A stretch of 31,108 bases of DNA from a virus (lineage: Duplodnaviria; Caudoviricetes). Position 1 is the stretch's first letter. Every line of letters begins with the position of its first letter. The DNA lies in the IMG/VR virus record IMGVR_UViG_3300020161_002551, positions 1-31,108 of that record. One strand, written 5' to 3'. Positions 2,273-19,875 of the stretch are shown piece by piece. The notes beneath the pieces were generated by a model. The model worked only from the letters and a program-made list of their open reading frames with translations, ran no database searches and had not been told where the DNA came from. Position numbers and translations under genes: made by a program.

Positions 2273-2287
2273 CCTGCTTTATTTTAT

Positions 2288-2360
2288 GGCAGGGTTAACG
2301 TGGCTTACTTATCGTCAACGAGCTTCTTGCTCTCTTTCTTCCCTTGTCCATATAGTCTAG
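2288..2360 (-). ncRNA. Conserved inter-cassette element, copy 1 (promoter plus putative sRNA)
   Basis: GGCAGGGTTAACGTGGCTTAC...GAGCTTCTTGCTC...CTTGT-N6-AGTCTA. The repeat is certain; the RNA interpretation is inferred. Confidence 0.6.
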
Positions 2361-2418
2361 TCGAGTATGAGCCCCAGAACCACTTCCGCAACCAGTTTCG
2401 CCACTGGCACAAGACCCA

Positions 2419-2447
2419 TTGGCCAGGGTGGTACTTGGTCCTATATT
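2419..2447 (+). promoter_or_regulatory. Early promoter TTGGCC-17 bp-TATATT (near-identical copy upstream of 6090)
   Basis: Correct -35/-10 spacing, 27 bp before the start codon. Confidence 0.55.
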
Positions 2448-2473
2448 GATGGAGTCCCAAACGGAACCAACTA

Positions 2474-3223
2474 GTGGATCTCCTGAAAATGACCAGCGGC
2501 AACGGCAAACTTGCCAAGTCTACTCTCACCTTCAGTCTTTTGGCTGGTAAGACTTGCCCCGGCGCCAATATCTGTAAGTCTTGGGTTGCTGAAGACTCCA
2601 ACAATCGTCGCAAGATTGTTGATGGTGAGAACATGCAATTCCGTTGCTTCGCTGCAAGCAACGAAGTGATGTATCCCAATACGTATAACTCACACAAGTT
2701 CAATCTCGAACAGATTGTTAAAGCTCTTCAGGTTGGAATTGATCATTGCGCTGATCTGATTCATCGCTCGATTGATGAGAATGCGATGCGTAAGACTGAC
2801 AAGGTTCGTATTCATCCTAGTGGTGACTTCTTTAACTATGCCTATATCTCTGCATGGTATAAAGTTGCAGAACGCAATCCTGATCTTAAGTTTTATTGCT
2901 ACTCTAAGTCTCTGAATCTCTTCATTCCCGATGCTCAGTGTAACACTTTCCCGCCAAACTTCTATCTTACTGCGTCGCATGGTGGCAAGTTTGATCACCT
3001 CATTGATGAAGGTTTGTTCCCTCGTTATGCGAAAGTGGTCAAGAATGATGAGGAAGCAAGTGTTCTCGGTCTCGAAGTTGATCACGATGACTCTCATTGT
3101 TTCGGCAATCGTCCGTTTGCTCTCCTAGTTCATAGTGTCCAACCTGCTGGTAGTGAATGGGGTCAAGCTATTCGTGCTCGTAAGGCGAAAGGAGAGTTTG
3201 TAGGTTACAGTAAGAAGAAGTGA
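2474..3223 (+). CDS. Phage Gp88-like protein (Cys-rich, radical-SAM-like)
   Basis: Motifs GNGKL, FSL.AG.TCPGA..C, RCFA, RIHPSGDF and YCYSK recalled from the GP88 family. GTG start. Confidence 0.65.
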   Translation: MDLLKMTSGNGKLAKSTLTFSLLAGKTCPGANICKSWVAEDSNNRRKIVDGENMQFRCFAASNEVMYPNTYNSHKFNLEQIVKALQVGIDHCADLIHRSIDENAMRKTDKVRIHPSGDFFNYAYISAWYKVAERNPDLKFYCYSKSLNLFIPDAQCNTFPPNFYLTASHGGKFDHLIDEGLFPRYAKVVKNDEEASVLGLEVDHDDSHCFGNRPFALLVHSVQPAGSEWGQAIRARKAKGEFVGYSKKK

Positions 3224-3364
3224 CATAAGATACGGGAGAGAGAGTATAACTTTCTCTCCTTTCTAGTATGATTGGCTACTGTGCCAGATGAGAAACTGTC
3301 CACTGGAATGGTTTTCTTCGTCTGTTTCCAGTATATTGATTCTGTTGGAACTGTTTTCCTTCTC

Positions 3365-3694
3365 ATGAGCAACACCATTCTTGACAATCTGGCTGACTCA
3401 TTCATTCAACAATGTATGAGTCGAGTGATGGAACAATCATACGATAAAGAGAAGTACATTGCGGCAGCAGTAGAGATTGAGAATTGTATTCTTGGACGAG
3501 AAGTTTATTATGATGATGATTATAGCGAGGTGATGAACCTAACAGACATTTGGTTCATTCAAGAGATGAACCTAACAGACATTTGGTTCATTCAAGATTC
3601 ATGGTGGGATCAATATAATGAACTGAATCTTCAAGATTCAATATACGTTCTCAACTACATTAAAGACATTTTTCCTGATACTTGGAGACCATAA
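3365..3694 (+). CDS. Acidic hypothetical protein (start reassigned to ATG 3365)
   Basis: The upstream part of the track ORF overlaps an operator/promoter region. Contains an in-frame 33-bp duplication. Confidence 0.7.
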   Translation: MSNTILDNLADSFIQQCMSRVMEQSYDKEKYIAAAVEIENCILGREVYYDDDYSEVMNLTDIWFIQEMNLTDIWFIQDSWWDQYNELNLQDSIYVLNYIKDIFPDTWRP

Positions 3695-3707
3695 AATATA
3701 AACAACT

Positions 3708-3738
3708 GAGTTGGTGGTTATTATCACCAACTCTTTTT
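3708..3738 (+). terminator. Rho-independent terminator
   Basis: GAGTTGGTG...CACCAACTC followed by TTTTT. Confidence 0.75.
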
Positions 3739-3762
3739 GTGTTTGTTATATTATTATTTCAT

Positions 3763-3834
3763 GGCAGGGTTAGCGTGGCTTACTTATCGTCAACGAGCTT
3801 CGGGCTCTCTTCTTCTCTTGTTCCCATAGTCTAG
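3763..3834 (-). ncRNA. Conserved inter-cassette element, copy 2
   Basis: Matches the repeat consensus, with TAGACT -10 on the minus strand. Confidence 0.6.
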
Positions 3835-3967
3835 TCGGTCATGAAGCCCTGTGCCACCCTGATGGACAGTTGTGGCACTGGCACACGAAGTCTGGTGGTG
3901 TCCTGTTGGTTCTGCCATCATACCTTCAGCAGCCAACCGCTGCCGCCAATTCACTTTCGATTCTTCG

Positions 3968-4501
3968 ATGGCCTACACTCTTGAGCAAGTCGCTGATCTC
4001 CTGAATAGCATCATTGTTCCTCAGGTTGATTCTGCTCCTGTTGTCGATTCCGCTCCTGTTTCTGTTCCCGATCCTATCACCGAAAAGATCAAGAAAGAGA
4101 CGGACGAAAAGGTTGCCCAGAAAATGGCAATCGTTCAGAAGAAGATTGAAGAGATTAGTCTCATCAATGCTACATTTCAGGTCATTCTTGAAGATTATCT
4201 GGGTGTACCTACGTCGGAATTGATTGTTCGATTGTTGGACAAGTGCCGCAGGAATAGCACAATGAACTTCAACGAGTTCTGTGCTGCTTATACTTTTCCT
4301 GGAATCAAAGGTGATTTGCACAAGCGTAACCTTTTGATCGTCACTTCTGCACTTTATCGTCTGAAAGTGAAGGATCTTAATGTTACTGCTAAAGGCACAC
4401 TTCGTTCCGTTGTCAAATATACTTCCATGTGCGAAGAGTGTGGAAGTCTGGCTAAGAAACTTGTTGATCGTCTTGATATTCAAGGCATCAAGTTCTCATA
4501 A
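3968..4501 (+). CDS. Hypothetical protein (start reassigned to ATG 3968, MAYTLEQ...)
   Basis: Long ORF downstream of the cassette promoter region. Confidence 0.7.
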   Translation: MAYTLEQVADLLNSIIVPQVDSAPVVDSAPVSVPDPITEKIKKETDEKVAQKMAIVQKKIEEISLINATFQVILEDYLGVPTSELIVRLLDKCRRNSTMNFNEFCAAYTFPGIKGDLHKRNLLIVTSALYRLKVKDLNVTAKGTLRSVVKYTSMCEECGSLAKKLVDRLDIQGIKFS

Positions 4502-4584
4502 GGTGACAATTCAATAACTGTCTCAGGGGCACCTAGAAGACCCTACAGTGCCCCTATAATGAATAAGTCAACCCAAGACACCTC

Positions 4585-4767
4585 ATGACTTACAAAGAAC
4601 TTCTGCAACAACTCCAACAACTCAACGAGGAACAACTCAATTCTGATGTTTGCATCTGGAATAGTGATGAATCTTTTGATGAGTTTTATCAGTATGGAGT
4701 AGAGTTTGTGTTTGCAACTGAAGAATGTCAAGCACTTGACGTTGATCACCCTATCATTCGTTTCTGA
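4585..4767 (+). CDS. Small acidic hypothetical protein
   Basis: Follows TATAAT at 4555-4560. First of five overlapping genes. Confidence 0.75.
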   Translation: MTYKELLQQLQQLNEEQLNSDVCIWNSDESFDEFYQYGVEFVFATEECQALDVDHPIIRF

Positions 4768-4898
4768 TGATGACTCCCGAAACTTACAACTTTACTGGTG
4801 ATGGTGTGACAGTTCTAGGACTGGTCGGTGTCATCTCCACTGGCATCATTCTGGTGCTATGCTTCACTCGTTACTTCAATTCTCCCCTGAGGAAATGA
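4767..4898 (+). CDS. 43-aa single-pass membrane protein (not in ORF track)
   Basis: MMTPETYNFTGDGVTVLGLVGVISTGIILVLCFTRYFNSPLRK*, with start/stop overlaps at both ends. Confidence 0.7.
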   Translation: MMTPETYNFTGDGVTVLGLVGVISTGIILVLCFTRYFNSPLRK

Positions 4899-5071
4899 CT
4901 GACCTTCGTTACTCTAATGGTACAGAACTTTTTGAGTTTCTGTATGCTAAATGTCGCCAAGATCCTGACCTGCTTGCTACTATCGTTGATGAGTACATTG
5001 TCTCTCTCAGTGATAGCAAACGGATTGAACTTGAGGACTTCCTTATGAACAACTTTGGAGATGATGAATGA
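4895..5071 (+). CDS. Small acidic hypothetical protein (start ATG 4895)
   Basis: ATGA overlap with the upstream stop. Confidence 0.7.
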   Translation: MTDLRYSNGTELFEFLYAKCRQDPDLLATIVDEYIVSLSDSKRIELEDFLMNNFGDDE

Positions 5072-5217
5072 CTGAAACTCTGCACACTGTCGAACTCACC
5101 AACCTGGAAATCTCCACCATTCTTTTCTACATTGAAGGTGGAGTGCAAGGTATTGATGAGACTGAGATTGAACCTGAAGTCTATTCAATTTTTCAAAAAC
5201 TGGAGAACGTTAAATGA
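5068..5217 (+). CDS. 49-aa acidic hypothetical protein (not in ORF track)
   Basis: MTETLHTVELTNLEISTILFYIEGGVQGIDETEIEPEVYSIFQKLENVK*, with ATGA overlaps at both ends. Confidence 0.7.
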   Translation: MTETLHTVELTNLEISTILFYIEGGVQGIDETEIEPEVYSIFQKLENVK

Positions 5218-5405
5218 ATCCCGATGATCGTGATGCCCTGATTCAATCATACATTGATCAGGTGATTGATAACATGGACACAAAGGATCTTGTTCGCATT
5301 GTATGGGAACAATTGGAGGAGAATCTTTCCCTGTATTCTGATGAAGAATTGAAGACCGAGATTGGAGATCATTATCCCGAACTGCTGGAGGATGTGACAG
5401 TCTGA
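5214..5405 (+). CDS. Highly acidic 63-aa hypothetical protein
   Basis: 18 D/E versus 4 K/R. ATGA coupling with the upstream gene. Confidence 0.75.
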   Translation: MNPDDRDALIQSYIDQVIDNMDTKDLVRIVWEQLEENLSLYSDEELKTEIGDHYPELLEDVTV

Positions 5406-5476
5406 CAACTGGCACAAGGGGTCTTGAGGTTTCTCAGGATCCCTGCAATAATACTTTTGTTCACCACAGAACTCCC

Positions 5477-5848
5477 ATGAGCAGCCAACAACAGTATTTC
5501 GGTCTCGGTGGAATCGAGCTGATCGGAACTGATACTTTCAAGTATCAAGAACAGATCGCTTTTCGTTACTGTTTTCAAGCATGGAAAGTGTTTTCAATCG
5601 AAGAGAATCTGATTGAGACTGATAGGTTCTACGTTTGGTCTGATGCTGTAGATAAAGCATACAAGATTGCAGTTGCTCATGTCTATCGTGGCCATAATGA
5701 AAAGTATCAACCTGAAGTTGATGCTGGTGAGAATGGTGGACGTTACGAAGTTGATCTGGATGAACAACATCGTGAAGTGATTGTCGAAACAAAAGAAGCA
5801 TGGAACGTCTTAATCGCTGGCAATCGAGATGACTTTTATCTCGGTTGA
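5477..5848 (+). CDS. Hypothetical protein
   Basis: Own operator/promoter at ~5396-5452, followed by a terminator. Confidence 0.75.
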   Translation: MSSQQQYFGLGGIELIGTDTFKYQEQIAFRYCFQAWKVFSIEENLIETDRFYVWSDAVDKAYKIAVAHVYRGHNEKYQPEVDAGENGGRYEVDLDEQHREVIVETKEAWNVLIAGNRDDFYLG

Positions 5849-5854
5849 TTGAGA

Positions 5855-5881
5855 AAGGGAGAGTTATACTCTCCTTTTTTT
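5855..5881 (+). terminator. Rho-independent terminator
   Basis: GGAGAG-TTATA-CTCTCC plus a T run. Related hairpins occur at ~7180, ~7746 and ~8905. Confidence 0.75.
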
Positions 5882-5906
5882 CTTAATGTTTATATTTTTT
5901 TATGAT

Positions 5907-5978
5907 GGCAGGGTCAGCGTGGCTCACTTGTCGTCATCGAGCTTCGGGCTCTCTTCTTCGCTTGTGACCCTATCCTAG
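5907..5978 (-). ncRNA. Conserved inter-cassette element, copy 3
   Basis: Consensus match, with TAGGAT -10 on the minus strand. Confidence 0.6.
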
Positions 5979-6089
5979 ACCATTCTGGCCACCAGTGCCA
6001 CCCTGATGGCCAGTTCCACCACTGGCACAAGACCCATTGGCCAGGGTGGTACTTGGCCCTATATTGATTGAGCAGTCAGCACTCCGACC

Positions 6090-6761
6090 ATGAACCGCTC
6101 CGAAGTGATGGATAAGATCAGGGCCATGATGGCTCTCAAGGAAGGCACTACCTTCGAGCAGGAAGCAGATAATGCTGCTCGAATGATTGACCGTCTTTGT
6201 GAGAAGTATGGCGTCACGGTGAATGATGCTCTCACTCCCGAAGTGTTGGATGAAAATTATCAATCGTTCAAGCGATTCGATAATGCTAATGGCATTTTGT
6301 TCTCTGCTGTCGCTACATTTTATGATGCGATGGCGTACATCTCTCGGGCAACAAAAGAACTGAAGTTGATTGGTACCGAAGCCCAACAGATTCAGGCTCG
6401 TCTTTATCATGAATACCTGTATGAAAGCATGGAGGTTGAGTGTAAGAAAGCCTATACTGCTGAGAAGATTCTGGCAGAATTGACCGGCAAAAGTATGAAC
6501 AAAGGATTCAAAGCAAACTTTAGACTTGCTTTTGCTCGTAGTGTTCAGCAACGTCTGGTGGAAAAGAAGAAAGAAGAGAATCGTATTCACGAACACGCTG
6601 GATACACAAAGGACACTCTTTCTACTCGTAGATTCTCTACTCGTAGGGTTTCATCTGCTCATGGTGATGGTGCTTTCTCTGGTGATTCTGCTGGCAATTC
6701 TGTATCTCTTCACCGGCAGGCTAATGGTTCTGCACAACGTCAACTGACTGGGGTTCGCTGA
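6090..6761 (+). CDS. DUF2786-domain protein
   Basis: N-terminal 'DKIRAMMAL...EQEADNAARMIDRLCEKYGV' fits the DUF2786 pattern. Confidence 0.7.
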   Translation: MNRSEVMDKIRAMMALKEGTTFEQEADNAARMIDRLCEKYGVTVNDALTPEVLDENYQSFKRFDNANGILFSAVATFYDAMAYISRATKELKLIGTEAQQIQARLYHEYLYESMEVECKKAYTAEKILAELTGKSMNKGFKANFRLAFARSVQQRLVEKKKEENRIHEHAGYTKDTLSTRRFSTRRVSSAHGDGAFSGDSAGNSVSLHRQANGSAQRQLTGVR

Positions 6762-6785
6762 TGCAAATGACAGTATAGTAGGCTG

Positions 6786-6818
6786 CGAGAGAGAGTAGCA
6801 ATGCTCTCTCTCCTTTTT
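6786..6818 (+). terminator. Rho-independent terminator
   Basis: GAGAGAGAG...CTCTCTCTC followed by CTTTTT. Confidence 0.7.
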
Positions 6819-6939
6819 GTATATTTTTCCGTTTTTCGTGATTCCTGTGCCAATGGTCAGACTGTCTACCAATGCTCTGAAAGGCCCCCAGAAGCCCCAG
6901 GAAGGCTGCTACAATACGGAAGACCACCTAGGACATCCC

Positions 6940-7158
6940 ATGGCTGCCATTATCCCCGATCCGTTCCGTCGCTGGGTTCAAGGCACAGCTTACGAAGCCA
7001 CCACCGACGAATACACTCAGGATGGTACCTGCATCGGCATCGGTACAATCGACATCACCAGACATGCCCGAGCCTGTGGCGTAACCTACGCATCGCCAGT
7101 TTCTTATACCAAACCAGAGAAAGACTTGGGTGATCTGTTTCTTGAATTGTTCGGTTGA
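6940..7158 (+). CDS. Hypothetical protein (start reassigned to ATG 6940, MAAIIPD...)
   Basis: Preceded by extended -10 TGCTACAAT (~6907-6915). Confidence 0.65.
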   Translation: MAAIIPDPFRRWVQGTAYEATTDEYTQDGTCIGIGTIDITRHARACGVTYASPVSYTKPEKDLGDLFLELFG

Positions 7159-7231
7159 TAACTATAACAATTCATAAGGAAGGGAGAGTATAACTCTCCT
7201 TTTTTTTCTATTGTTTATATTTTTTTATGAT

Positions 7232-7303
7232 GGCAGGGTTAGCGTGGCTTACTTGTCGTCGTCGAGCTTCGGGCTCTCTTCTTCTCTTGTCCCTATAGTC
7301 TAG
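7232..7303 (-). ncRNA. Conserved inter-cassette element, copy 4
   Basis: Consensus match. Confidence 0.6.
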
Positions 7304-7413
7304 TCCATCATGGGGCTCCCAGCCTCTCCAGTGGACGGTTTGACCACTGGCACAATGGGGTTGACTTTTCGTTTAATCGGTGCAATCATTAATGGGTAGT
7401 CAACCAATCGACC

Positions 7414-7737
7414 ATGGATTATTCCAAAGCGGTGATGTCTCTGCTGAATAAGTTCCAAACGAGGGGTGTAGCCATCACCCGAATTTATGATGGCATGGAG
7501 TGGGAGAAAGTGACTGGAGATCATAATCTTCAGATTAGAAAGAATGCGACCGAGATTGTCACGTCGGTTGACATCTCTACCGTGCAGGTTGAGCATGATG
7601 GAGTGATCGGATTGTTGACTATTGTTCTTGGAAACGATGAAAGTGAGATTCTTTGTGATTATAGCGCAAAAAAAGATTCACAGTTGATGCACATTATTGA
7701 TAAAGTTGCGGATGAGTTCTATACACAATGGGAGTGA
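7414..7737 (+). CDS. Hypothetical protein
   Basis: Single-gene cassette between copies 4 and 5. Confidence 0.75.
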   Translation: MDYSKAVMSLLNKFQTRGVAITRIYDGMEWEKVTGDHNLQIRKNATEIVTSVDISTVQVEHDGVIGLLTIVLGNDESEILCDYSAKKDSQLMHIIDKVADEFYTQWE

Positions 7738-7795
7738 TACTTTCGGGGGGAGTTATACTCTCCCTTTTTTCTTAATCTTTATACTATTATTAAAT

Positions 7796-7866
7796 GGCAG
7801 GGTTAGCGTGGCTTACTTTCGTCGTCAGCCTTCGGGGCCTCGTCTTCCTTTGTTCCCATAGTCTAC
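7796..7866 (-). ncRNA. Conserved inter-cassette element, copy 5 (GCC/GGC hairpin variant)
   Basis: Consensus match, with TGG-TAGACT on the minus strand. Confidence 0.6.
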
Positions 7867-7935
7867 CATGCCACAGGCCCAGTGCATCATCAGTATTTCT
7901 GATCTGTAACATAAAAAACTTTTATCGTTTAGGTA

Positions 7936-7964
7936 TTGACTTGGCCATGGTTGATCTGTATTCT
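7936..7964 (+). promoter_or_regulatory. Early promoter TTGACT-17 bp-TATTCT
   Basis: Canonical spacing, immediately before the shared leader and ATG 7995. Confidence 0.65.
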
Positions 7965-7994
7965 ATTGGAGTCGTCAGGGATTCCTCTCCCACC

Positions 7995-8309
7995 ATGCGT
8001 AAGATCGAACGTCTGATGAATGATGCAATCAAGGCATCAAAAGACTGGAAACTCGACAACACTGCCGTGGTCGCACTTGACAATCATTCTGAGGTTTATC
8101 TTTATGACAATCTTATCGCAAGGATTGGAGAAACCTGGATTCAACTTTTCGATGGTGGATGGAGAACACACACCACAAAGTCTCGCCTGAACGCTATTCT
8201 CGAAGGCAATGGATTGCCCGAGGAAGGTGTATTCCAAAAGAAAGGAGTTTGGTACGTTCTGTATAATGGATCTCCCATTCCATTCTTTTCAGGTATGCGT
8301 CTGAATTGA
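7995..8309 (+). CDS. Cyanophage-type hypothetical protein (MRKIERLMNDAI..., start reassigned)
   Basis: ATG follows the shared leader GGAGTCGTCAGGGATTCC. Motif TTKSRLNA. Confidence 0.8.
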   Translation: MRKIERLMNDAIKASKDWKLDNTAVVALDNHSEVYLYDNLIARIGETWIQLFDGGWRTHTTKSRLNAILEGNGLPEEGVFQKKGVWYVLYNGSPIPFFSGMRLN

Positions 8310-8315
8310 TTGTAT

Positions 8316-8347
8316 AAAGAATGAACCAAAAGTTCATTCTTTTTTTT
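8316..8347 (+). terminator. Rho-independent terminator (same hairpin at ~11021-11053; covarying version at ~12432-12460)
   Basis: AAAGAATGAAC-CAAAA-GTTCATTCTTT plus a T run. Confidence 0.75.
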
Positions 8348-8369
8348 ATTCTTTATACTTTAGTATCAA

Positions 8370-8440
8370 GGCAGGGTTAGCGTGGCTTACTTTCGTCATC
8401 GAGCTTCGGGCTCTCTTCTTCGCTTGTGACCCTATCCTAG
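8370..8440 (-). ncRNA. Conserved inter-cassette element, copy 6
   Basis: Consensus match, with TGC-TAGGAT on the minus strand. Predicted +1 at 8427. Confidence 0.6.
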
Positions 8441-8558
8441 CAGACCGTGGCGCCGGATCCTAGGCTGATGGACAGTTTGACCACTGGCACAATTGGGGCT
8501 GGCAGGGTCGGGAATCTCGGTTATCTTTAGGGAGTCGAAAGGGACAGGAGCCCTGCTA

Positions 8559-8897
8559 ATGACCACCACCACTCAACGCCTTGAGGTTGTTTCCGCTCAG
8601 CTGAAAGCTTTGTTGCAGCAGGAAACTGCTCTGAAGCAGCAGATCGCCAACACTCGTCAGGAGCTGCTCAACACTGCTATTGCTTACAATAGCGACCACA
8701 AGACTATCACCACCGCCAGCGGCACAGTTACAATCGCTGAAGTTCATGCTAAGACCTACTCTAACAAGGTCGCAAAACTCAGCGATAAAGTGGAAGAATG
8801 GAAGGCAAAAGTTGCCGCACAAAAACTCATCGAGGATCGTCTCGGTACGGTTATTCTTTCTGATCCCACTCTTCAGCTTCGATTCAAGGCAATCTGA
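8559..8897 (+). CDS. Coiled-coil hypothetical protein (start reassigned to ATG 8559)
   Basis: MTTTTQRLEVV..., downstream of -10 TATCTT. Confidence 0.7.
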   Translation: MTTTTQRLEVVSAQLKALLQQETALKQQIANTRQELLNTAIAYNSDHKTITTASGTVTIAEVHAKTYSNKVAKLSDKVEEWKAKVAAQKLIEDRLGTVILSDPTLQLRFKAI

Positions 8898-8955
8898 TAC
8901 TTTCGGGGGGAGTTATACTCTCCCTTTTTTCTTAATCTTTATACTTTAGTATCAA

Positions 8956-9026
8956 GGCAGGGTTAGCGTGGCTTACTTTCGTCGTCAGCCTTCGGGGCCT
9001 CTTCTTCGCTTGTGACCCTATCCTAG
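8956..9026 (-). ncRNA. Conserved inter-cassette element, copy 7
   Basis: Consensus match (GCC/GGC variant). Confidence 0.6.
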
Positions 9027-9146
9027 CAGACCATGGCGCCGGATCGTGGCTCCGTCACAAAACTTTATGTGTTGGTTTGTGAACCGGATCGTTGGTTCTG
9101 GGCAGGCGCCATGGTAGGATTCTGGAGTCGTCAGGGATTCCCCGCC

Positions 9147-9317
9147 ATGCCATTCTCCTTCGTTCCTTGCTCAGACATCGAAACCGGCAACGATTGCTGG
9201 GCATTAAATGACTTCGAGAATCGCCGGATTCATGTACTCGAATCCTGGCAGATTCAGTCATTCATGGACAAAAGGTATGGGATAGTTCATGAGAATAAGT
9301 ATAAACTTATGGATTGA
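9147..9317 (+). CDS. 56-aa hypothetical protein (start reassigned)
   Basis: ATG follows the shared leader. Extended -10 TGGTAGGAT upstream. Confidence 0.65.
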   Translation: MPFSFVPCSDIETGNDCWALNDFENRRIHVLESWQIQSFMDKRYGIVHENKYKLMD

Positions 9318-9427
9318 TGAGCTTCTAGGGGCCTGGGTATCCTAGGCTCCTTTTGCAAGCCAGAATGAGGAAAAAAGTATTTTTCTCATTCAACGTTTAA
9401 TCTTTCGTCCTTTTGTTATTCTTTCTC

Positions 9428-9685
9428 ATGTCGAACGATCAGTTCATTCAGTCTGCCATAATTCTTGGGGAATACTCTCTCATTTCTGAGTGGGACATGG
9501 TACAGGAAGACTATACTTCCATGACAGAAGATGCCTTTCTGGATTGGATCAAAACTTATCAATACTATCACGCATTGGTATGTTCGACTAAAGGCAATCC
9601 TAATGAGATCGCCTACCAGTTGCAGGCAGACTATAAAGAGTTAAATGAGCAGATTGCCTTGGACCATGAAGATAATGAAGATTGA
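9428..9685 (+). CDS. Acidic hypothetical protein
   Basis: MSNDQFIQ..., followed by a terminator at ~9708-9744. Confidence 0.7.
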   Translation: MSNDQFIQSAIILGEYSLISEWDMVQEDYTSMTEDAFLDWIKTYQYYHALVCSTKGNPNEIAYQLQADYKELNEQIALDHEDNED

Positions 9686-9774
9686 CCGCATTTAATACAA
9701 CAATACGTGAGAGAGATTAACTATAACAATCTCTCTCATTTTTTCTTTATACTTTTTTCGGGGTAGTATTTTAT

Positions 9775-9846
9775 GGCAGGGTTAGCGTGGCTTACTTGTC
9801 GTCGTCGAGCTTCGGGCTCTCTTCTTCGCTTGTGACCTTATCCTAG
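9775..9846 (-). ncRNA. Conserved inter-cassette element, copy 8
   Basis: Consensus match. Confidence 0.6.
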
Positions 9847-10007
9847 CAGCACCAGAGCCAGACCGTGAGACCGTGACGGGCAATCGTAACAGAGCTTCAC
9901 AATGGCCAGGCTTCGCAGGCTTTAGGTTTTATTCCGTTTTCGGTGGCTGTTCTGGCTTGTCGTGCTGCTACCATTAGGGAGTCGTCAGGGATCGCTTCCC
10001 TCCTACC

Positions 10008-10238
10008 ATGACCTTCTCTCCTGATTCCGCAGCCACTAGCAGCCCGACTCCTACGGATTATGTGGAAGCTCTCCGCATCTTTTATGATCCCAATTCAGGA
10101 ACGGTGCCATTCTGGATCGCCAGATCATGCGCCGAACTGATTGGTTTGTCTGCCCAATTTTCCGAAGATTATGGACATCTCGAAGGAGAAAAACTTGACC
10201 TTGGTGAGTTTAATGTTTGGGCGATTGAGCTGATGTGA
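10008..10238 (+). CDS. Hypothetical protein
   Basis: Shared leader upstream and terminator at ~10252-10275. Confidence 0.7.
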   Translation: MTFSPDSAATSSPTPTDYVEALRIFYDPNSGTVPFWIARSCAELIGLSAQFSEDYGHLEGEKLDLGEFNVWAIELM

Positions 10239-10302
10239 GTTATACTCAACCGGGGGCAACTTTGCCCCTTTTTTTATACTTTTGGGGAGGGTAGTATTTT
10301 AT

Positions 10303-10374
10303 GGCAGGGTTAGCGTGGCTTACTTGTCGTCGTCAGCCTTCGGGGCCTCTTCTTCGCTTGTGATCCTATCCTAG
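10303..10374 (-). ncRNA. Conserved inter-cassette element, copy 9
   Basis: Consensus match (GCC/GGC variant). Confidence 0.6.
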
Positions 10375-10497
10375 CAGGTCATGGCGCTGGATCCGGTCGC
10401 TGTTACAACACTTAACATTCCGTTTTGGTATCAACCGATACAGACTGTAGAACCGGGTTCGTTTATCTTTAAGGAGTCGTCAGGGATTCCTCCCGCC

Positions 10498-10767
10498 ATG
10501 CAGATCATTCGATACTGTGCCGAGAATGACTACAATGGAAACCCTCAAAGGGTTTATGTCATGCTCGATGAAGATTCTAACCAGATTGCACAATGGGATG
10601 AAGGTTATTATGGTTTTCACGCTGTACCTGGACCCTGGCGTGATGATGCCTATAGGGCAGAAAGAATCAGTGTTTCGGTGAAAAAATACAAGCGTATTCT
10701 GCGCCAGATTCCTACTTTCCAGTGGGCGCATGATGTCCCAGGTTATTCTCATCTGCGCCAACCATAA
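10498..10767 (+). CDS. Hypothetical protein (start reassigned to ATG 10498)
   Basis: ATG follows the shared leader. Confidence 0.75.
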   Translation: MQIIRYCAENDYNGNPQRVYVMLDEDSNQIAQWDEGYYGFHAVPGPWRDDAYRAERISVSVKKYKRILRQIPTFQWAHDVPGYSHLRQP

Positions 10768-10832
10768 GACAACAATGGGGGAGCAATCCTCCCCCTATTC
10801 TTTCACCTTTCCCCCCCAACCATAAGACAACA

Positions 10833-11015
10833 ATGGAAGACGCAATCCTGACCGCATTGTTCAACCTTTCCCGACTGAATAACAAGTGCTATGAGCATTG
10901 GATCATTCAACTTTATGAGTTCAATGGTGAGAAAATCCATGAAGAATGGAATTCACAAACTCTTAAATTGATGGAAAATGACGTGATGGCTATGTCTATT
11001 CTTCACACAATCTGA
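10833..11015 (+). CDS. 60-aa hypothetical protein
   Basis: ORF directly before a terminator. Confidence 0.6.
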   Translation: MEDAILTALFNLSRLNNKCYEHWIIQLYEFNGEKIHEEWNSQTLKLMENDVMAMSILHTI

Positions 11016-11077
11016 AAGTATAAAGAATGAACCAAAAGTTCATTCTTTTTTTTCTATTCTTTATACTTTAGTATCAA

Positions 11078-11149
11078 GGCAGGGTTAGCGTGGCTTACTT
11101 GTCGTCATCGAGCTTCGGGCTCTCTTCTTCTCTTGTTCCCATAGTCTAC
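11078..11149 (-). ncRNA. Conserved inter-cassette element, copy 10
   Basis: Consensus match. Confidence 0.6.
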
Positions 11150-11283
11150 AGCATCATGGCGCCTGCTGCGGTCGCTGTTACAACACTTAACATTCCAGCG
11201 GGTTTCGGATTCTGTATCAAACGATACAGACTGGAGCATCGGTTCCGACTACCTTTAGGGAGTCGTCAGGGATTCCTCCCGTC

Positions 11284-11823
11284 ATGTCTCAGACTCTCAC
11301 CGGCTCCGCTCTCCTGGCTCTCCATCGTGCAGTCACCAACGCCGGACTGACCAAAGGTCCGGCTGTGATTCAGGCAGGTTACGTTCGTGATAACGAGCGC
11401 CCAAATTTTTGTGATTATTATACAAATGTCATGATCGCAATGGTGCAGGAAGAGTATAAGAATCGCACGAAAAAAACAATCGTGAATCAGTTATTGGATG
11501 CAATTCAGTATAAAATGCCTTTCAATAAAGGCAAGCTGAATGTCTACGTTCAGACTGAGAATACGTACATTGTCGGCAATAAAGTTGTGGTCTATTATGA
11601 TGGTCAGCCGATTGCTGTCATTCGGGACAATGATTCGTTTCCTAATAACATGAGCCTAGGGCATCATGATAACAAAAACCAGGCAATCAAGACCTACCTT
11701 AATGCAATCGCACGTTACTTTGCGGGAGGAAAGGTAACCGAACGCAACGGAGTTTGGTGGATTGGTACAGGCGCCAGTGAGGAAGTATTCACGGGAGATT
11801 GGCATTATCTGACCAAGATTTGA
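11284..11823 (+). CDS. Hypothetical fusion: cyanobacterial AbrB-like N-terminal segment plus paralogue of 7995..8309
   Basis: LTGSALL...AGYV...ERPNF resembles the AbrB-like N-terminus. The C-terminal part aligns by eye with the 7995 protein. Confidence 0.6.
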   Translation: MSQTLTGSALLALHRAVTNAGLTKGPAVIQAGYVRDNERPNFCDYYTNVMIAMVQEEYKNRTKKTIVNQLLDAIQYKMPFNKGKLNVYVQTENTYIVGNKVVVYYDGQPIAVIRDNDSFPNNMSLGHHDNKNQAIKTYLNAIARYFAGGKVTERNGVWWIGTGASEEVFTGDWHYLTKI

Positions 11824-11895
11824 TCCCAGTTTGTATCATCGGGGGAAGGCAAGTCCTTCCCTTTCTTTATACTTTTGGGGAGGGTAGTATTTTAT

Positions 11896-11967
11896 GGCAG
11901 GGTTAGCGTGGCTTACTTGTCGTCATCGGGCTTCGTGCCCTCGTCTTCGCTTGTCCCCATAGTCTAG
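11896..11967 (-). ncRNA. Conserved inter-cassette element, copy 11 (GGGC/GCCC compensatory variant)
   Basis: Consensus match with a double change that keeps the stem paired. Confidence 0.6.
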
Positions 11968-12122
11968 CAGCGCCAGGGCCAGACTGCGAGACCGTGACAG
12001 GCTTCCGTAACAGAGCTTCACAATGGCCAGGCTTCGCAGGCTTTAGGTTTTCTTCCGTTTTCGGTGGCTGTTCTGGCTTGTCGTGCTGCTACCATTAGGG
12101 AGTCGTCAGGGGATTCCCCGCC

Positions 12123-12425
12123 ATGCCTCGCACCATCACAAACAACGTTCCCCGTCCGCTCTACAGCACCTTTGAACTTACCAGTGCTGAGAGGGAGCAT
12201 CTTAAAAAGGAATTGAACTATCTCACACAGGAAGAGTTTGACTCTACTTCCGTCTTCAAGTACCGGGAGGAGTGGTACAGCATGGACCAATTCTGTCGCC
12301 TCGATGGTGACATGTTGCGCCAAGGATGGCAAGGTTATTTTGGCGAAACTGCATGGTCTTCGATTATCATTAAGATCGTCAACTCTCACACTGAGGTTGT
12401 AGTGGGCAGGCACATCTGCGACTGA
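12123..12425 (+). CDS. Phage hypothetical protein
   Basis: Shared leader upstream and terminator downstream. Confidence 0.75.
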   Translation: MPRTITNNVPRPLYSTFELTSAEREHLKKELNYLTQEEFDSTSVFKYREEWYSMDQFCRLDGDMLRQGWQGYFGETAWSSIIIKIVNSHTEVVVGRHICD

Positions 12426-12486
12426 TACTATAAAGTACACACCAAAAGTGTGTACTTTTTCTTTATTCTTTATACTTTAGCATCAA

Positions 12487-12558
12487 GGCAGGGTTAGCGT
12501 GGCTTACTTGTCGTCGTCGAGCTTCGGGCTCTCTTCTTCGCTTGTGACCCTATCCTAG
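12487..12558 (-). ncRNA. Conserved inter-cassette element, copy 12
   Basis: Consensus match. Confidence 0.6.
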
Positions 12559-12700
12559 CAGACCGTGGCGCCGGATCCGGTCGCTGTTACAACACTTAAC
12601 ATTCCAGATCGCCGACACTTCTACCGATTTCCTTAAGGTTTTGACCGTCGGATCGGGCAGGCTGACCTGTAGGATAGATGGGTAGTCAGGGATTCCTCCC

Positions 12701-12901
12701 ATGTTCTTTGATCGTTTCGACATCGTTGAGGCACACTACGCCTTCTGCTCCGACGAACATGGCGGCATGGGATCGGAGCTGTATGGGCGCCTATGCAAAA
12801 TGCAACGCTATTTCAGGCCCGGTGCGGCATGGCGTGGTTATCATTCTCTCAGTGAGAATGGCCAGGTGATTTATGACAATCTTGTCAGCAAGTTTGCCTG
12901 A
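12701..12901 (+). CDS. Phage hypothetical protein (FDRFDI.EA.Y type)
   Basis: Leader variant GTCAGGGATTCCTCCCATG and -10 TAGGAT upstream. Confidence 0.7.
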   Translation: MFFDRFDIVEAHYAFCSDEHGGMGSELYGRLCKMQRYFRPGAAWRGYHSLSENGQVIYDNLVSKFA

Positions 12902-12962
12902 CAGTATAGTTTGGGGAGGCAAGTCCTCCCTCATTCTTTGCACTTTCCCTGAGAATCTCACC

Positions 12963-13205
12963 ATGCGCCTTATCAATCTCACCATCACTTCTAATGAGAT
13001 TCAGTTAGCTGACGGGACCGAAATCCTGTTTAGTTATGGTGCCCCAGTGGCTGCCAGAATCCCTGGGATGGGTTTTGTTAGGACTGACAAGTTCTACAGT
13101 AAAACTACAATTAAGCACATCGATCTGTGGTTAAATGATAAGATCGGGAAGGACATTGTTCCGGCGGTTGATCAATGGGAGCTTGACAAGTTAGTCGCAT
13201 TTTGA
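12963..13205 (+). CDS. Phage hypothetical protein (LFSY..PVAA...YSKTT.KHI type; start reassigned)
   Basis: ATG 12963 follows a hairpin. Motif pattern is common in cyanophage early proteins. Confidence 0.75.
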   Translation: MRLINLTITSNEIQLADGTEILFSYGAPVAARIPGMGFVRTDKFYSKTTIKHIDLWLNDKIGKDIVPAVDQWELDKLVAF

Positions 13206-13338: not shown

Positions 13339-13416
13339 CATAAAATCCCGCCCATAAAAAATTTCCCCCACCCCCCAAAAAAAAAAATCCCCCCATAAAA
13401 AATTTCCCCATAAATA
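13339..13416. repeat. C-tract/A-tract block with CCCATAAAAAATTTCCCC x2, ending in late promoter CATAAATA
   Basis: Directly visible. Marks the boundary between the cassette array and the late genes. Confidence 0.75.
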
Positions 13417-13444
13417 CCTGCATATATCACATTATTACTGAAGT

Positions 13445-13624
13445 ATGGACAAGATATATCACATTTATATCAAAGGGGAATGTAAATATCATAGTTTATC
13501 AGAAGAAGAATTTAATGCAATTTGGAATTATTTGGATAAACTCTGTTGGGTATCAGAGATTGACAGAGAGGACATTGAATATGAGGAGCTGGACTCACCC
13601 CTCATAAATAGTATCGAGCATTGA
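13445..13624 (+). CDS. 59-aa cyanophage hypothetical protein (not in ORF track)
   Basis: MDKIYHIYIKGECKYHSLSEEEF..., downstream of a late promoter. Confidence 0.75.
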   Translation: MDKIYHIYIKGECKYHSLSEEEFNAIWNYLDKLCWVSEIDREDIEYEELDSPLINSIEH

Positions 13625-17556: not shown

Positions 17557-17958
17557 ATGCCAATAGAACGAGTTAGTAAACAATTTAAAGATATTAGTTT
17601 ATCTTTCACTGTAAATCCTCTCAATTACGATTTAATCGTCATTAAGAATGAGACCGCTATCGCTCGCTCAGTAAGAAATTTAGTATATACGACAATAGGA
17701 GAACGTTTTTTAAATCCTAATCTGGGCTCTAATGTTACCAGAGCCCTTTTTGATAGTCTAGATTCCATTACTGCAAACGTAATACAATCAGAAATTAAAA
17801 CTACGATTGATAACTACGAACCAAGAGTGAATTTAGTATCAGTTAAAGTAACACCAGATTATGATACATTAGAATTTAATGTTACAATTACATACGATAT
17901 TATTGGCATTGATGCATTAAGACAACAACTACAATTTGCACTCTTGCAATCCAGATAA
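17557..17958 (+). CDS. gp25: Baseplate wedge subunit gp25
   Basis: KDISLSF, AIARSVRNLV.T..GER, I.NYEPRV motifs. Located directly before gp6. Confidence 0.92.
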   Translation: MPIERVSKQFKDISLSFTVNPLNYDLIVIKNETAIARSVRNLVYTTIGERFLNPNLGSNVTRALFDSLDSITANVIQSEIKTTIDNYEPRVNLVSVKVTPDYDTLEFNVTITYDIIGIDALRQQLQFALLQSR

Positions 17959-19872
17959 ATGGCACTTGTAAATTTTTCGAATCTAGATTTCGAACAAATA
18001 AAAATCTCAATCAAAGACTATCTAAGATCCAATTCTAATTTTACGGATTATGATTTTGATGGATCTAACATGTCAATTATTGTTGATATGTTAGCATATA
18101 ATACTTACATAAATTCGTTTAATGCGAATATGTTAAGTAATGAAGTTTTTATTGACAGTGCCACATTGAGAGAAAATGTAGTCTCTTTGGCAAGTAATAT
18201 CGGATATTTACCAAAGTCAAAAACTGCAGCTAGAGGAATATTATCATTCAGTGTTGATACAAGTACAATTGAATCTGGATTAACTCCATCTACTATAACA
18301 TTAAAAAAAGGAACAGTATGCACATCATCTGCATCTTATAACGGTCAAACATATTCTTTTATTATAAAAGATGATATTACAGTTCCAGTTCAAACTAATC
18401 TAGCTACTTTTGATAATGTTGAAATTTATGAGGGTTCATATATTGTAAGTAGCTTTACTGTGAATTCATATGAATACAATCAAAGATTCATATTGGACAA
18501 TTCAAGTATTGATACATCATTAATTTCTGTTACTGTTAGAGGAACATCAGAAGAAGTCGCATACAAATTCAATTTAGTTGATAATTTGACAGATGTTACT
18601 CCAACATCAAAAATATTTTTTGTTCGAGAAATAGAAGATCAAAGATATGAATTAATTTTTGGAGATGGGCAGTTTGGACAAAAATTAAATAATGGAGACT
18701 ATATTGAAGTATCTTATGTTGTAACTAATGGTGAATTGGGAAATGGAATTCCAAGCGTAGCTTTCAGCGGAAGATTATATGATAATAATGAAAGAAGTAT
18801 AACTGATGGAATTTCACTTGCAGTTTTAACTGAATCAACCAAAGGCGGAAATGAAATTGAAACAGTAGACTCAATTAGAAAATATGCACCAAAATTATAT
18901 TCTACTCAGAACAGAGCAGTAACGCCAAGTGATTATGAGACTATTGTTCCTTTAGTTTACCCAGAGATTGATTCGGTATCATCTTTTGGTGGAGAAGAAC
19001 TAACTCCCCCACAATTTGGTAAAGTATTTCTAAGTATTAAACCAAAATTTGGAGCATTTCTATCTAACAGTACCAAGGACGAAATAAAAAGAAAATTAAA
19101 AAAATATTCCGTATCTGGAATTGGTATTGAAATTTTAGATCTAAAATATCTTTATTTGGAAATAAATTCATACGTTTATTATAATTCAAATACCACTTTA
19201 AGTACAGATCAATTAAAAGAATCAATTCGCCAAAATGTTAAATCATATTCCGAATCATCTGATCTTAACAAATATGGTGCCAGATTTAAATATAGCAAAT
19301 TCCAAAAGTTAATCGACAATACTAGTTCATCTATCACATCAAATATTACTACCATACAAATAAGAAGAGATTTAAGACCAGTATTAAACAAATATGCGGA
19401 TTATGAAATTTGTTTTGGTAATGAATTTTATTCAGAAAGAACTGATGGGTATAATATAAAGTCTTCTGGATTTAAAGTTGATGGAATCTCATCCACAGTC
19501 TATATTTCAGATAAGCCCACAAAAGGAACTACATATGGAAAGATATTTTTGTTTACTTTAGATATACAAAATAATCCTCAAATATTAAGAAGTTCAATAG
19601 GAACAATTGATTATAAAAAAGGAGAAATCAAAATAAATCCAATAAATATAGTATCTACTTTAAAAAATACTGGTGGCGAGCCAATAATAGAAATATCTGC
19701 AATTCCCACCTCAAATGATGTAATTGGATTACAAGATTTGTATTTACAACTGAGTCTAAATGATTTTAATGTAGAGACGAGACAAGATAATATTGAATCT
19801 GGTTATGATATATCTGGTACAAATTACATTACAACTTCTAGTTATGTCAATGGAGATCCCGTAAGAAGCTAA
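17959..19872 (+). CDS. gp6: Baseplate wedge subunit gp6
   Basis: LDFEQIK, FTDYDFDGS, LAYNTY, FGDG, QNRAVT..DY and GTIDY..G motifs. Confidence 0.93.
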   Translation: MALVNFSNLDFEQIKISIKDYLRSNSNFTDYDFDGSNMSIIVDMLAYNTYINSFNANMLSNEVFIDSATLRENVVSLASNIGYLPKSKTAARGILSFSVDTSTIESGLTPSTITLKKGTVCTSSASYNGQTYSFIIKDDITVPVQTNLATFDNVEIYEGSYIVSSFTVNSYEYNQRFILDNSSIDTSLISVTVRGTSEEVAYKFNLVDNLTDVTPTSKIFFVREIEDQRYELIFGDGQFGQKLNNGDYIEVSYVVTNGELGNGIPSVAFSGRLYDNNERSITDGISLAVLTESTKGGNEIETVDSIRKYAPKLYSTQNRAVTPSDYETIVPLVYPEIDSVSSFGGEELTPPQFGKVFLSIKPKFGAFLSNSTKDEIKRKLKKYSVSGIGIEILDLKYLYLEINSYVYYNSNTTLSTDQLKESIRQNVKSYSESSDLNKYGARFKYSKFQKLIDNTSSSITSNITTIQIRRDLRPVLNKYADYEICFGNEFYSERTDGYNIKSSGFKVDGISSTVYISDKPTKGTTYGKIFLFTLDIQNNPQILRSSIGTIDYKKGEIKINPINIVSTLKNTGGEPIIEISAIPTSNDVIGLQDLYLQLSLNDFNVETRQDNIESGYDISGTNYITTSSYVNGDPVRS

Positions 19873-19875
19873 GAC

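Follow-up and report, generated by a model that had tools for sequence, protein, structure and literature searches.

What kind of element can stand a dozen times between the small early genes of a single phage? The question is raised by the 31,108-nt stretch of DNA analysed here as a whole (the window: positions 1 to 31,108 of IMG/VR virus record IMGVR_UViG_3300020161_002551), in which a conserved repeat precedes each cassette of an early-gene array at positions 2288 to 13205. A preliminary description took the repeat for part of each cassette's plus-strand regulatory module. On the evidence below it is probably something else: a minus-strand small RNA gene of about 70 nt, with a predicted host-type promoter, carried twelve times between reordered cassettes, whose RNA would serve as a protein-binding decoy. 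The array represents a cyanophage form of PeSL (promoter-early stem-loop) cassettes, and the embedded RNA family is new to Rfam and to the open literature searched.

The twelve copies start at 2288, 3763, 5907, 7232, 7796, 8370, 8956, 9775, 10303, 11078, 11896, and 12487. A 23-nt core pattern matches the plus strand twelve times, at exactly the coordinates first described, and never in 100 shuffles. A covariance model, itself built with the twelve window copies included, recovers the same set at 70.6–92.7 bits and no further copy in the window (next best, 12.8 bits). An assembly artefact is unlikely, because the copies differ from one another and the same flanking genes enclose a 12-copy array in an independent contig. 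The organisation initially proposed for each unit stands only in part. A terminator hairpin and T-rich tract precede 11 of the 12 copies, but the first follows 47-bp tandem repeats instead. The operator envisaged for every unit, CACTGGCAC, follows five copies, whereas other motifs follow six and none follows the remaining one. (Motifs resembling CACTGGCAC also lie in the early regions of phages S-SRM01 and S-CREM1; we presume a link to published cyanophage early promoters.) Likewise, each unit has a promoter-like region, but some cassettes hold additional ones with no element (about 4510–4560, 5400–5460, and 6810–6930).

The strand is the central issue. The conserved ATCCTA/AGTCTA end of the element reads on the minus strand as a −10 box, and full hairpin pairing occurs on that strand only, contrary to the plus-strand role first assigned to it. 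Pattern scans collected 23 and 59 loci in 11 and 15 IMG/VR contigs (some being the same phage sampled repeatedly), together with 118 metagenome stretches. A profile search yielded 227 unique copies, of which 225 were parsed; the two others, GC-rich metagenome outliers that lack the hairpin (L136 and L141), were excluded before counting. On the minus strand, a TAnnnT box lies 14–31 nt upstream of the hairpin in 224 of the 225 unique copies (223 of them at 14–19 nt), compared with 4–38% in four control windows. Six bases after the box comes an A, at +7, in 99% of copies, and a TG extension is present in 143 of 224. The predicted RNA opens with a purine-rich stretch and GA, continues with a 4-bp stem capped by an NNGAA loop, and has GAYGA after three variable bases. 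In its 3′ part, a 3-nt linker leads to GURAGCCAC and AYCCUG, which have four variable bases between them, and the tail is AAAUA. Among 88 diverse copies (of 224) with this hairpin, termed subtype A, all 352 stem cells pair and 73 are changed on both sides. Fifty cells are G-U, which on the plus strand would give A-C mismatches. Mutual information is strong at the hairpin pairs only, and the plus-strand sequences share no fold. Finally, 15 of 33 assembled related contigs contain an inverted copy. The six of these 15 that were inspected keep the −10 box and have no adjoining terminator; the −10 box is thus moved together with the element and independently of the cassette. (At the array end, an inverted copy, for example at L002 5901, L003 4459, and L004 5164, faces the promoter of a conserved gene for a protein of about 230 residues, family F10, again with no terminator; it could also form the 5′ leader of the F10 mRNA.)

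The element proves to be one member of a wider phage family. Model R1 gave one weak match in cultured phage S-SRM01 (E 0.26), in a region with two copies that share the −10/N6/ACAA start and the GCCAC..CCUGC..AAAUA end around a different hairpin. A pattern made from the frame of these copies, which fixes the frame bases and leaves the hairpins free, identified at least 139 viral loci (about 121 stored stretches). These condense to 109 unique sequences, 84 of them outside subtype A, and define three hairpin subtypes overall: A, B, and C. Subtype B (n = 50) has a 5-bp stem and mostly a GGGGUA loop, set between the same GA and NNN-GA flanks as subtype A; in 45 aligned sequences, 225 of 225 cells pair, 46 of them as G-U, and four of the five pairs show changes on either side. 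The spacer between the 3′ motifs is 4 nt in subtypes B and C and 6 nt in A, and GCCAC drifts to GACAC, GUCAC, or GACAA in phages DSL-LC03 and B23.

Model R2, built from subtype B only and hence holding no window sequence, recovers the twelve window copies without exception, each on the minus strand, with E values from 2e-7 to 0.07. Among cultured phages it finds one copy in DSL-LC03 (E 2e-19; predicted start near 82,295), two in S-SRM01 (one with its predicted start near 90,205), and two in B23 (E 3e-12 and 2e-8); it has no match in S-PM2, Sf-FR1, or DSL-LC02, and S-CREM1 has no copy by model R1 or by pattern. A weak match in S-SCSM2R (E 0.037) was rejected for want of the promoter-hairpin layout. 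Copy number differs between clades: eight long B/C contigs have one or two pattern matches each and one complete genome has a single copy, whereas long contigs of the window clade have six to twelve, and in the three records searched from end to end every copy sits inside the early array. In the 27 B/C contexts inspected, the element is almost always flanked by a terminator-like tract on one side and a divergent promoter of early type on the other.

These comparisons bear on a different possibility, that the element acts solely as DNA, whether as a site for binding or recombination or as an extra plus-strand terminator, and yields no functional RNA. Half of the ends of rearranged blocks (see below) fall at the element, its spacing is constant within subtypes, and in six copies the plus-strand hairpin with its pyrimidine tail scored as terminator-like. 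However, subtype C has no such tail; the G-U wobbles occur on the minus strand only; the −10/+1 arrangement is conserved; inverted copies occur; and single-copy phages retain the whole element with no partner for recombination. A DNA-only role is accordingly rated quite unlikely. Even the minus-strand transcript might be read differently, as the message for a 7-residue peptide starting at an AUG after the hairpin. Many subtype A copies do have ATG, GTG, or TTG there, a purine-rich stretch ahead of it, and an in-frame stop after seven codons. Yet the stop position varies, with GCTA in only 112 of 225 copies; linker lengths shift the frame in 11 of 225; variation is not concentrated at third codon positions; and the frame is not preserved in subtypes B and C. 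Such a peptide is exceedingly improbable.

The preliminary description recognised no known family in the element, and the searches agree. Rfam returned nothing at gathering score in the window, nothing at E ≤ 10 on the element within 9600–12700, and nothing at E ≤ 0.5 among 20 subtype B/C loci. Likenesses to hammerhead, twister, and pistol ribozymes and to riboswitches were dropped, as no Rfam match or further covariation accompanied them, and blastn of the window element against cultured phages gave 15 short chance matches. The cyanophage noncoding RNAs wcaG, manA, glnA, abiF, and CfrI (PMC9964418, PMC12197685) and the host Cyano-1 (Yfr2) RNA are likewise short and structured, the cyanophage ones intergenic; in the accessible portions of these sources, none is presented as an early-array gene of six to twelve copies. 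Cyano-1 is unrelated to the element in sequence. The accessible text of the open literature searched, which included the S-SRM01, S-CREM1, and Sullivan papers and one review (among those compared: PMC9964418, PMC8557907, PMC3037559, PMC12197685, PMC5780444, PMC4503421), holds no description of the element, although supplements or subscription papers could.

One structural likeness deserves attention. The hairpin has GA ahead of its stem and, behind it, a bulge of 3 nt and a further GA, and in this it resembles a kink-turn (PMC8191799). Kink-turn-type GA is present in 216 of 225 subtype A and 49 of 50 subtype B sequences, with the bulge length partly set by the search patterns, and this GA-stem-NNN-GA signature is common to both subtypes despite their different stems and loops. 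G-C closes the stem in 74 of 88 subtype A copies, whereas G-U mostly does so in subtype B. Position 3b is C in 213 of 225 copies; the same source reports C at 3b to favour ion-induced folding, and C-G at 3b:3n, found here in 67 of 225, to fold poorly. Also unlike a kink-turn, the element has no Watson-Crick NC helix, 4b:4n being G:A in 121, G:G in 61, G:C in 42, and G:U in 1 of 225. Because this helix is missing, as is the whole signature in subtype C, the kink-turn is taken only as a lead.

How, then, does the repeat relate to the cassettes? The array had been called modular and either integron-like or PeSL-like, and comparison with the closest relative, IMGVR_UViG_3300032270_001559, upholds the second term. 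Window cassettes 5, 6, and 7 are cassettes 7, 6, and 5 of the relative, on the same strand and without inversion; the last gene of cassette 2 is a stand-alone cassette there; and its array holds no match for the cassette 3 gene with DUF2786 or for the gene of cassette 8. Nine of 18 block ends, hand-listed from gene-bearing blastn blocks and not independent of one another, lie within 60 nt of an element, against a background of 21% (binomial P 0.007). Over 32 distinct gene orders, the downstream neighbour is shared by 211 of 638 pairs where an element intervenes and by 347 of 578 within cassettes, and the neighbour has changed in 14 of 19 families across an element versus 13 of 33 within cassettes; the genomes being related, these counts are descriptive only. 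Copies also appear homogenised: eight of the twelve have their best match within the window, not in the relative, with two ties and two reversed. The reordering, together with the block ends at the element, suggests that the array works like PeSL cassettes, and its pattern fits PeSL-type homologous exchange.

PeSL cassettes are described from the T4-type phage pairs RB49/phi1, PST/T4, and nt-1/KVP40 (PMC2839356, PMC4122927). In the accessible text of these papers, as in the window, three features recur: a T4-like phage with repeats in a variable region of small ORFans; a repeated intergenic terminator stem-loop, AT-rich tract, and early promoter (in 11 of 12 window units); and small ORFans gained, lost, or displaced at such modules with no dedicated recombinase. 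The conserved part of the PeSL, according to the same text, is the forward, near-consensus sigma-70 promoter (−35/−10) with its stem-loop. The window's forward promoters, by contrast, vary between units (a sigma-70 scan gave 28 sites, versus 18.9 ± 5.1 in shuffles), and the most conserved part is an additional unit of about 70 nt with its own reverse −10 box and covarying hairpin. PeSL cassettes also form mini-circles when the repeats that flank them recombine. The word "antisense" is absent from the Arbiol PeSL text. A low density of PeSL-like sites is reported for S-PM2 in the accessible part of PMC4503421.

The integron comparison, on the other hand, finds no support. No integrase (IntI-type recombinase) is encoded among the 37 and 30 open reading frames (ORFs) scanned, the contig being a 31-kb fragment. 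An integron attC site is a long imperfect palindrome that folds along its full length, whereas the element's consensus, 71 columns long, folds into no more than 4 pairs, a stem of just 4 bp; and integron cassettes are promoterless and share one promoter, whereas each unit here has its own promoter-like region and terminator. The host-takeover module of phage SPO1 is also a cluster of small early genes, divided into many short units whose intergenic regions recur. SPO1 belongs to an unrelated phage family, and its likeness to the array is one of description; we know of no divergent small RNA gene in that module.

Two pairs of intergenic modules are duplicated within the window: 7735–7873 and 8895–9033 (87% over 139 nt), and 9761–9990 and 11882–12111 (92% over 230 nt). 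They take in the terminator, or the promoter together with the ribosome-binding region, and the genes beside them are unrelated, which points to an exchange of modules in the recent past.

Since the single-copy gene keeps its promoter, hairpin, and 3′ motifs, homology for recombination is not a sufficient account of the element. Shuffling would therefore be a second use, or a by-product, in the window clade.

A number of observations weigh against reading the repeat as a recombining gene for a decoy RNA. The search patterns and the parsing expression already contained part of the structure, and the choice of −10 hexamer favoured a purine at +7 and a TG extension. In subtype A only three core types of stem occur, which reduces the compensatory changes to few events, and 447 of 500 shuffles reach the doubly changed count. 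The predicted folding energy of subtype A is lower on the plus strand (−15.8 versus −10.3 kcal/mol). A hairpin terminator is absent at the first and the inverted copies and the minus-strand tails are weak; with no consistent minus-strand terminator, the 3′ end of the predicted RNA is undefined. Subtype C (34 of the 84 B/C sequences) has a 5–6-bp stem that lacks the kink-turn signature. The other nine of the 18 block ends lie away from elements, several of them close to element-free promoters. A sister clade shows no homogenisation, its copies being as alike within genomes (0.66–0.71) as between them (0.66–0.70). Finally, no RNA that the element might mimic was found in the host genomes searched.

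Which hosts are at issue? The virus record, a 31-kb fragment, carries baseplate wedge genes at 17557–30477 whose top tblastn matches are Synechococcus phages (best S-SM2, 56.6%); the window therefore belongs to a T4-like cyanophage. Photosystem II genes are present in one of two related contigs searched. The host is likely Synechococcus or Cyanobium, because the PsbD of that relative is 93–97% identical to picocyanobacterial proteins.

In searches for a host counterpart, the subtype A pattern gave six single matches, all in non-cyanobacterial genomes, and the subtype B pattern none. Models R1 and R2 gave two matches and one (E 0.03–0.05) on 101 Cyanobium-family genomes, with about 50 candidates per genome scored, and none had the promoter-hairpin layout; on five named picocyanobacteria, the best R1 score was E 0.49. 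A short 3′ pattern occurs in 33 of 301 host genomes, versus 3 for its control. This excess is taken as coding bias, because the one recurrent site inspected lies within an ORF. In one small host-family genome (L457, 1500–1585; G035), a weak R2 match (E 0.034) is intergenic-looking and hairpin-rich and ends in TGCCTTGAAATA, with no matching −10 box; it may be chance or another RNA.

Might the RNA act instead by base-pairing, GCCAC and CCUG being the seeds for a transcript of host or phage? These 3′ motifs are near-invariant, lie unpaired, and are separated by a spacer of varying sequence and length, and subtype B pairs with host Cyano-1 somewhat better than base shuffles do (−38.2 versus −34.2 kcal/mol). 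However, a screen confined to one Cyanobium rRNA operon and Cyano-1 gave no two-seed complement; duplex energies of the 3′ part with the rRNA operon are near those of shuffles (A, −25.0 versus −24.6; B, −29.9 versus −27.9); the bases adjoining the seeds differ between subtypes; and GCCAC drifts in DSL-LC03 and B23, as noted above. (A separate tmRNA search gave short sub-threshold matches only.) Base-pairing is thus judged unlikely.

The decoy fits best because near-invariant unpaired motifs are carried on an exchangeable hairpin, behind early host-type promoters, in a gene whose copy number has expanded. Multi-copy decoy RNAs include the CsrB/Rsm family and the phage pseudo-antitoxin repeats directed against type III toxin-antitoxin systems. 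These too present short unpaired motifs on small hairpins and draw their dose from copy number, a parallel made by description, with no host antitoxin-like homologue found in the genomes searched. Host RNA polymerase would very likely transcribe every copy shortly after infection, in each case divergently from the promoter of the cassette. With rather less confidence, somewhat short of an even chance, the RNA might offer a host or phage protein its kink-turn-like hairpin and short single-stranded motifs, and a higher copy number would increase the dose. Cassette shuffling of the PeSL type, and amplification of the gene in this clade, would with good confidence result from homologous recombination that joins one copy, or one promoter module, with another. 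More tentatively still, and on balance doubtful, the decoy of photosystem-carrying T4-like cyanophages, made by host polymerase, might titrate a host defence or regulatory protein in the first minutes of infection, while in this clade its link to the shuffling module would let a single recombination process both swap early genes and tune the dose from 1 to 12 copies.

One further role would place the transcript on its template, as an R-loop primer that starts replication or recombination in the early region. T4 origins consist of a promoter and a downstream AT-rich unwinding tract; here the first 32 nt are 68–73% purine, an AT-rich tract lies downstream, and iteron-like 10-bp and 47-bp tandem repeats stand directly ahead of the array. 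Yet an origin of the T4 type would need neither conserved single-base motifs nor a kink-turn-like signature, and several complete cyanophages (S-PM2, Sf-FR1, DSL-LC02, S-CREM1) have no match. A primer role is very unlikely.

The element represents a candidate phage small RNA family outside Rfam, widespread among contigs of uncultured cyanophages and still without annotation in the three cultured phages that carry it. Its presence in S-SRM01, DSL-LC03, and B23 makes expression and function directly testable. PeSL-type cassette shuffling is also extended to cyanophages, and tied there to gene amplification. If the RNA is indeed a decoy, it points to a new RNA-binding defence or regulator in picocyanobacterial hosts.

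The coordinates of the array are collected in the table; its ORFs are small and mostly unannotated.

Table. Cassettes, terminator-like hairpins, predicted small RNA genes, and operator-like motifs of the window
Feature	Position	Strand	Remarks
Cassette 1	2489..3694	+	GP88 family 2489–3223 (PF17338); 109-aa ORF 3365–3694
Terminator-like hairpin ending cassette 1	3708..3733	+	
Cassette 2	3968..5848	+	Seven small ORFs, one DUF7326; internal element-free promoter-like regions
Terminator-like hairpin ending cassette 2	5851..5881	+	
Cassette 3	6090..7158	+	DUF2786/DUF7168 protein 6090–6761; one small ORF
Terminator-like hairpin ending cassette 3	7176..7206	+	
Cassette 4	7414..7765	+	107-aa ORF (phrog_4158); terminator 7745–7765
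Cassette 5	7995..8342	+	Kyano_Gp96 family ORF; terminator 8316–8342
Cassette 6	8559..8925	+	112-aa ORF; terminator 8905–8925
Cassette 7	9147..9738	+	Two small ORFs; hairpin with T-rich tail 9708–9738
Cassette 8	10008..10269	+	76-aa ORF; terminator 10252–10269
Cassette 9	10498..11048	+	Two small ORFs; terminator 11022–11048
Cassette 10	11284..11863	+	179-aa ORF, weak Kyano_Gp96 likeness; terminator 11841–11863
Cassette 11	12123..12458	+	100-aa ORF (phrog_21085); terminator 12432–12458
Cassette 12	12701..13205	+	Two small ORFs, the second phrog_5643
Predicted small RNA gene, copy 1	2278..2359	-	+1 at 2347; −10 TAGACT at 2354–2359; no 3′ terminator
Predicted small RNA gene, copy 2	3753..3833	-	+1 at 3821; −10 TAGACT
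Predicted small RNA gene, copy 3	5897..5977	-	+1 at 5965; −10 TAGGAT
Predicted small RNA gene, copy 4	7222..7302	-	+1 at 7290; −10 TAGACT
Predicted small RNA gene, copy 5	7786..7865	-	+1 at 7853; TG-extended −10 TAGACT
Predicted small RNA gene, copy 6	8360..8439	-	+1 at 8427; TG-extended −10 TAGGAT
Predicted small RNA gene, copy 7	8946..9025	-	+1 at 9013; TG-extended −10 TAGGAT
Predicted small RNA gene, copy 8	9765..9845	-	+1 at 9833; TG-extended −10 TAGGAT
Predicted small RNA gene, copy 9	10293..10373	-	+1 at 10361; TG-extended −10 TAGGAT
Predicted small RNA gene, copy 10	11068..11148	-	+1 at 11136; −10 TAGACT
Predicted small RNA gene, copy 11	11886..11966	-	+1 at 11954; TG-extended −10 TAGACT
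Predicted small RNA gene, copy 12	12477..12557	-	+1 at 12545; TG-extended −10 TAGGAT
CACTGGCAC operator-like motif, ahead of cassette promoter	2402..2410	+	Also at 3876, 6020, 7345, 8482
CACTGGCAC operator-like motif with no element	~5408	+	Cassette 2

Repeats of other kinds surround and enter the array. The contig starts with ORFs of the leucine-rich-variant/HEAT repeat type (1–98 and 99–347; 78-bp repeats), and two convergent, overlapping homing-endonuclease-like genes follow at 470–1630, one with a GIY-YIG-type start and 51-bp repeats on the plus strand, the other of HNH type on the minus strand. Beside them, the non-coding block directly ahead of the array (1684–2272) contains tandem repeats: 26/31-bp, 10-bp (14 units), and 47-bp (4.8 units). 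Relatives have CTTATGAGT-type repeats ahead of their first element copy, and the early region of S-SRM01 has repeated CTCGACGAG motifs. The block in the window is possibly a set of iterons, or a packaging or origin site. Within cassette 1, ORF 3365–3694 contains an exact in-frame 33-bp tandem duplication (3532–3597), and a C-rich/A-rich repeated stretch (13340–13430) closes the array ahead of a conserved gene at 13445.

In the relative that carries photosystem II genes, the first of these (L201–L203; G001:C1:112682-115985) is matched in two pieces with stops between them, and ORFs of 204 and 211 residues follow around psbD; the split probably reflects an intron or homing endonucleases in psbA.

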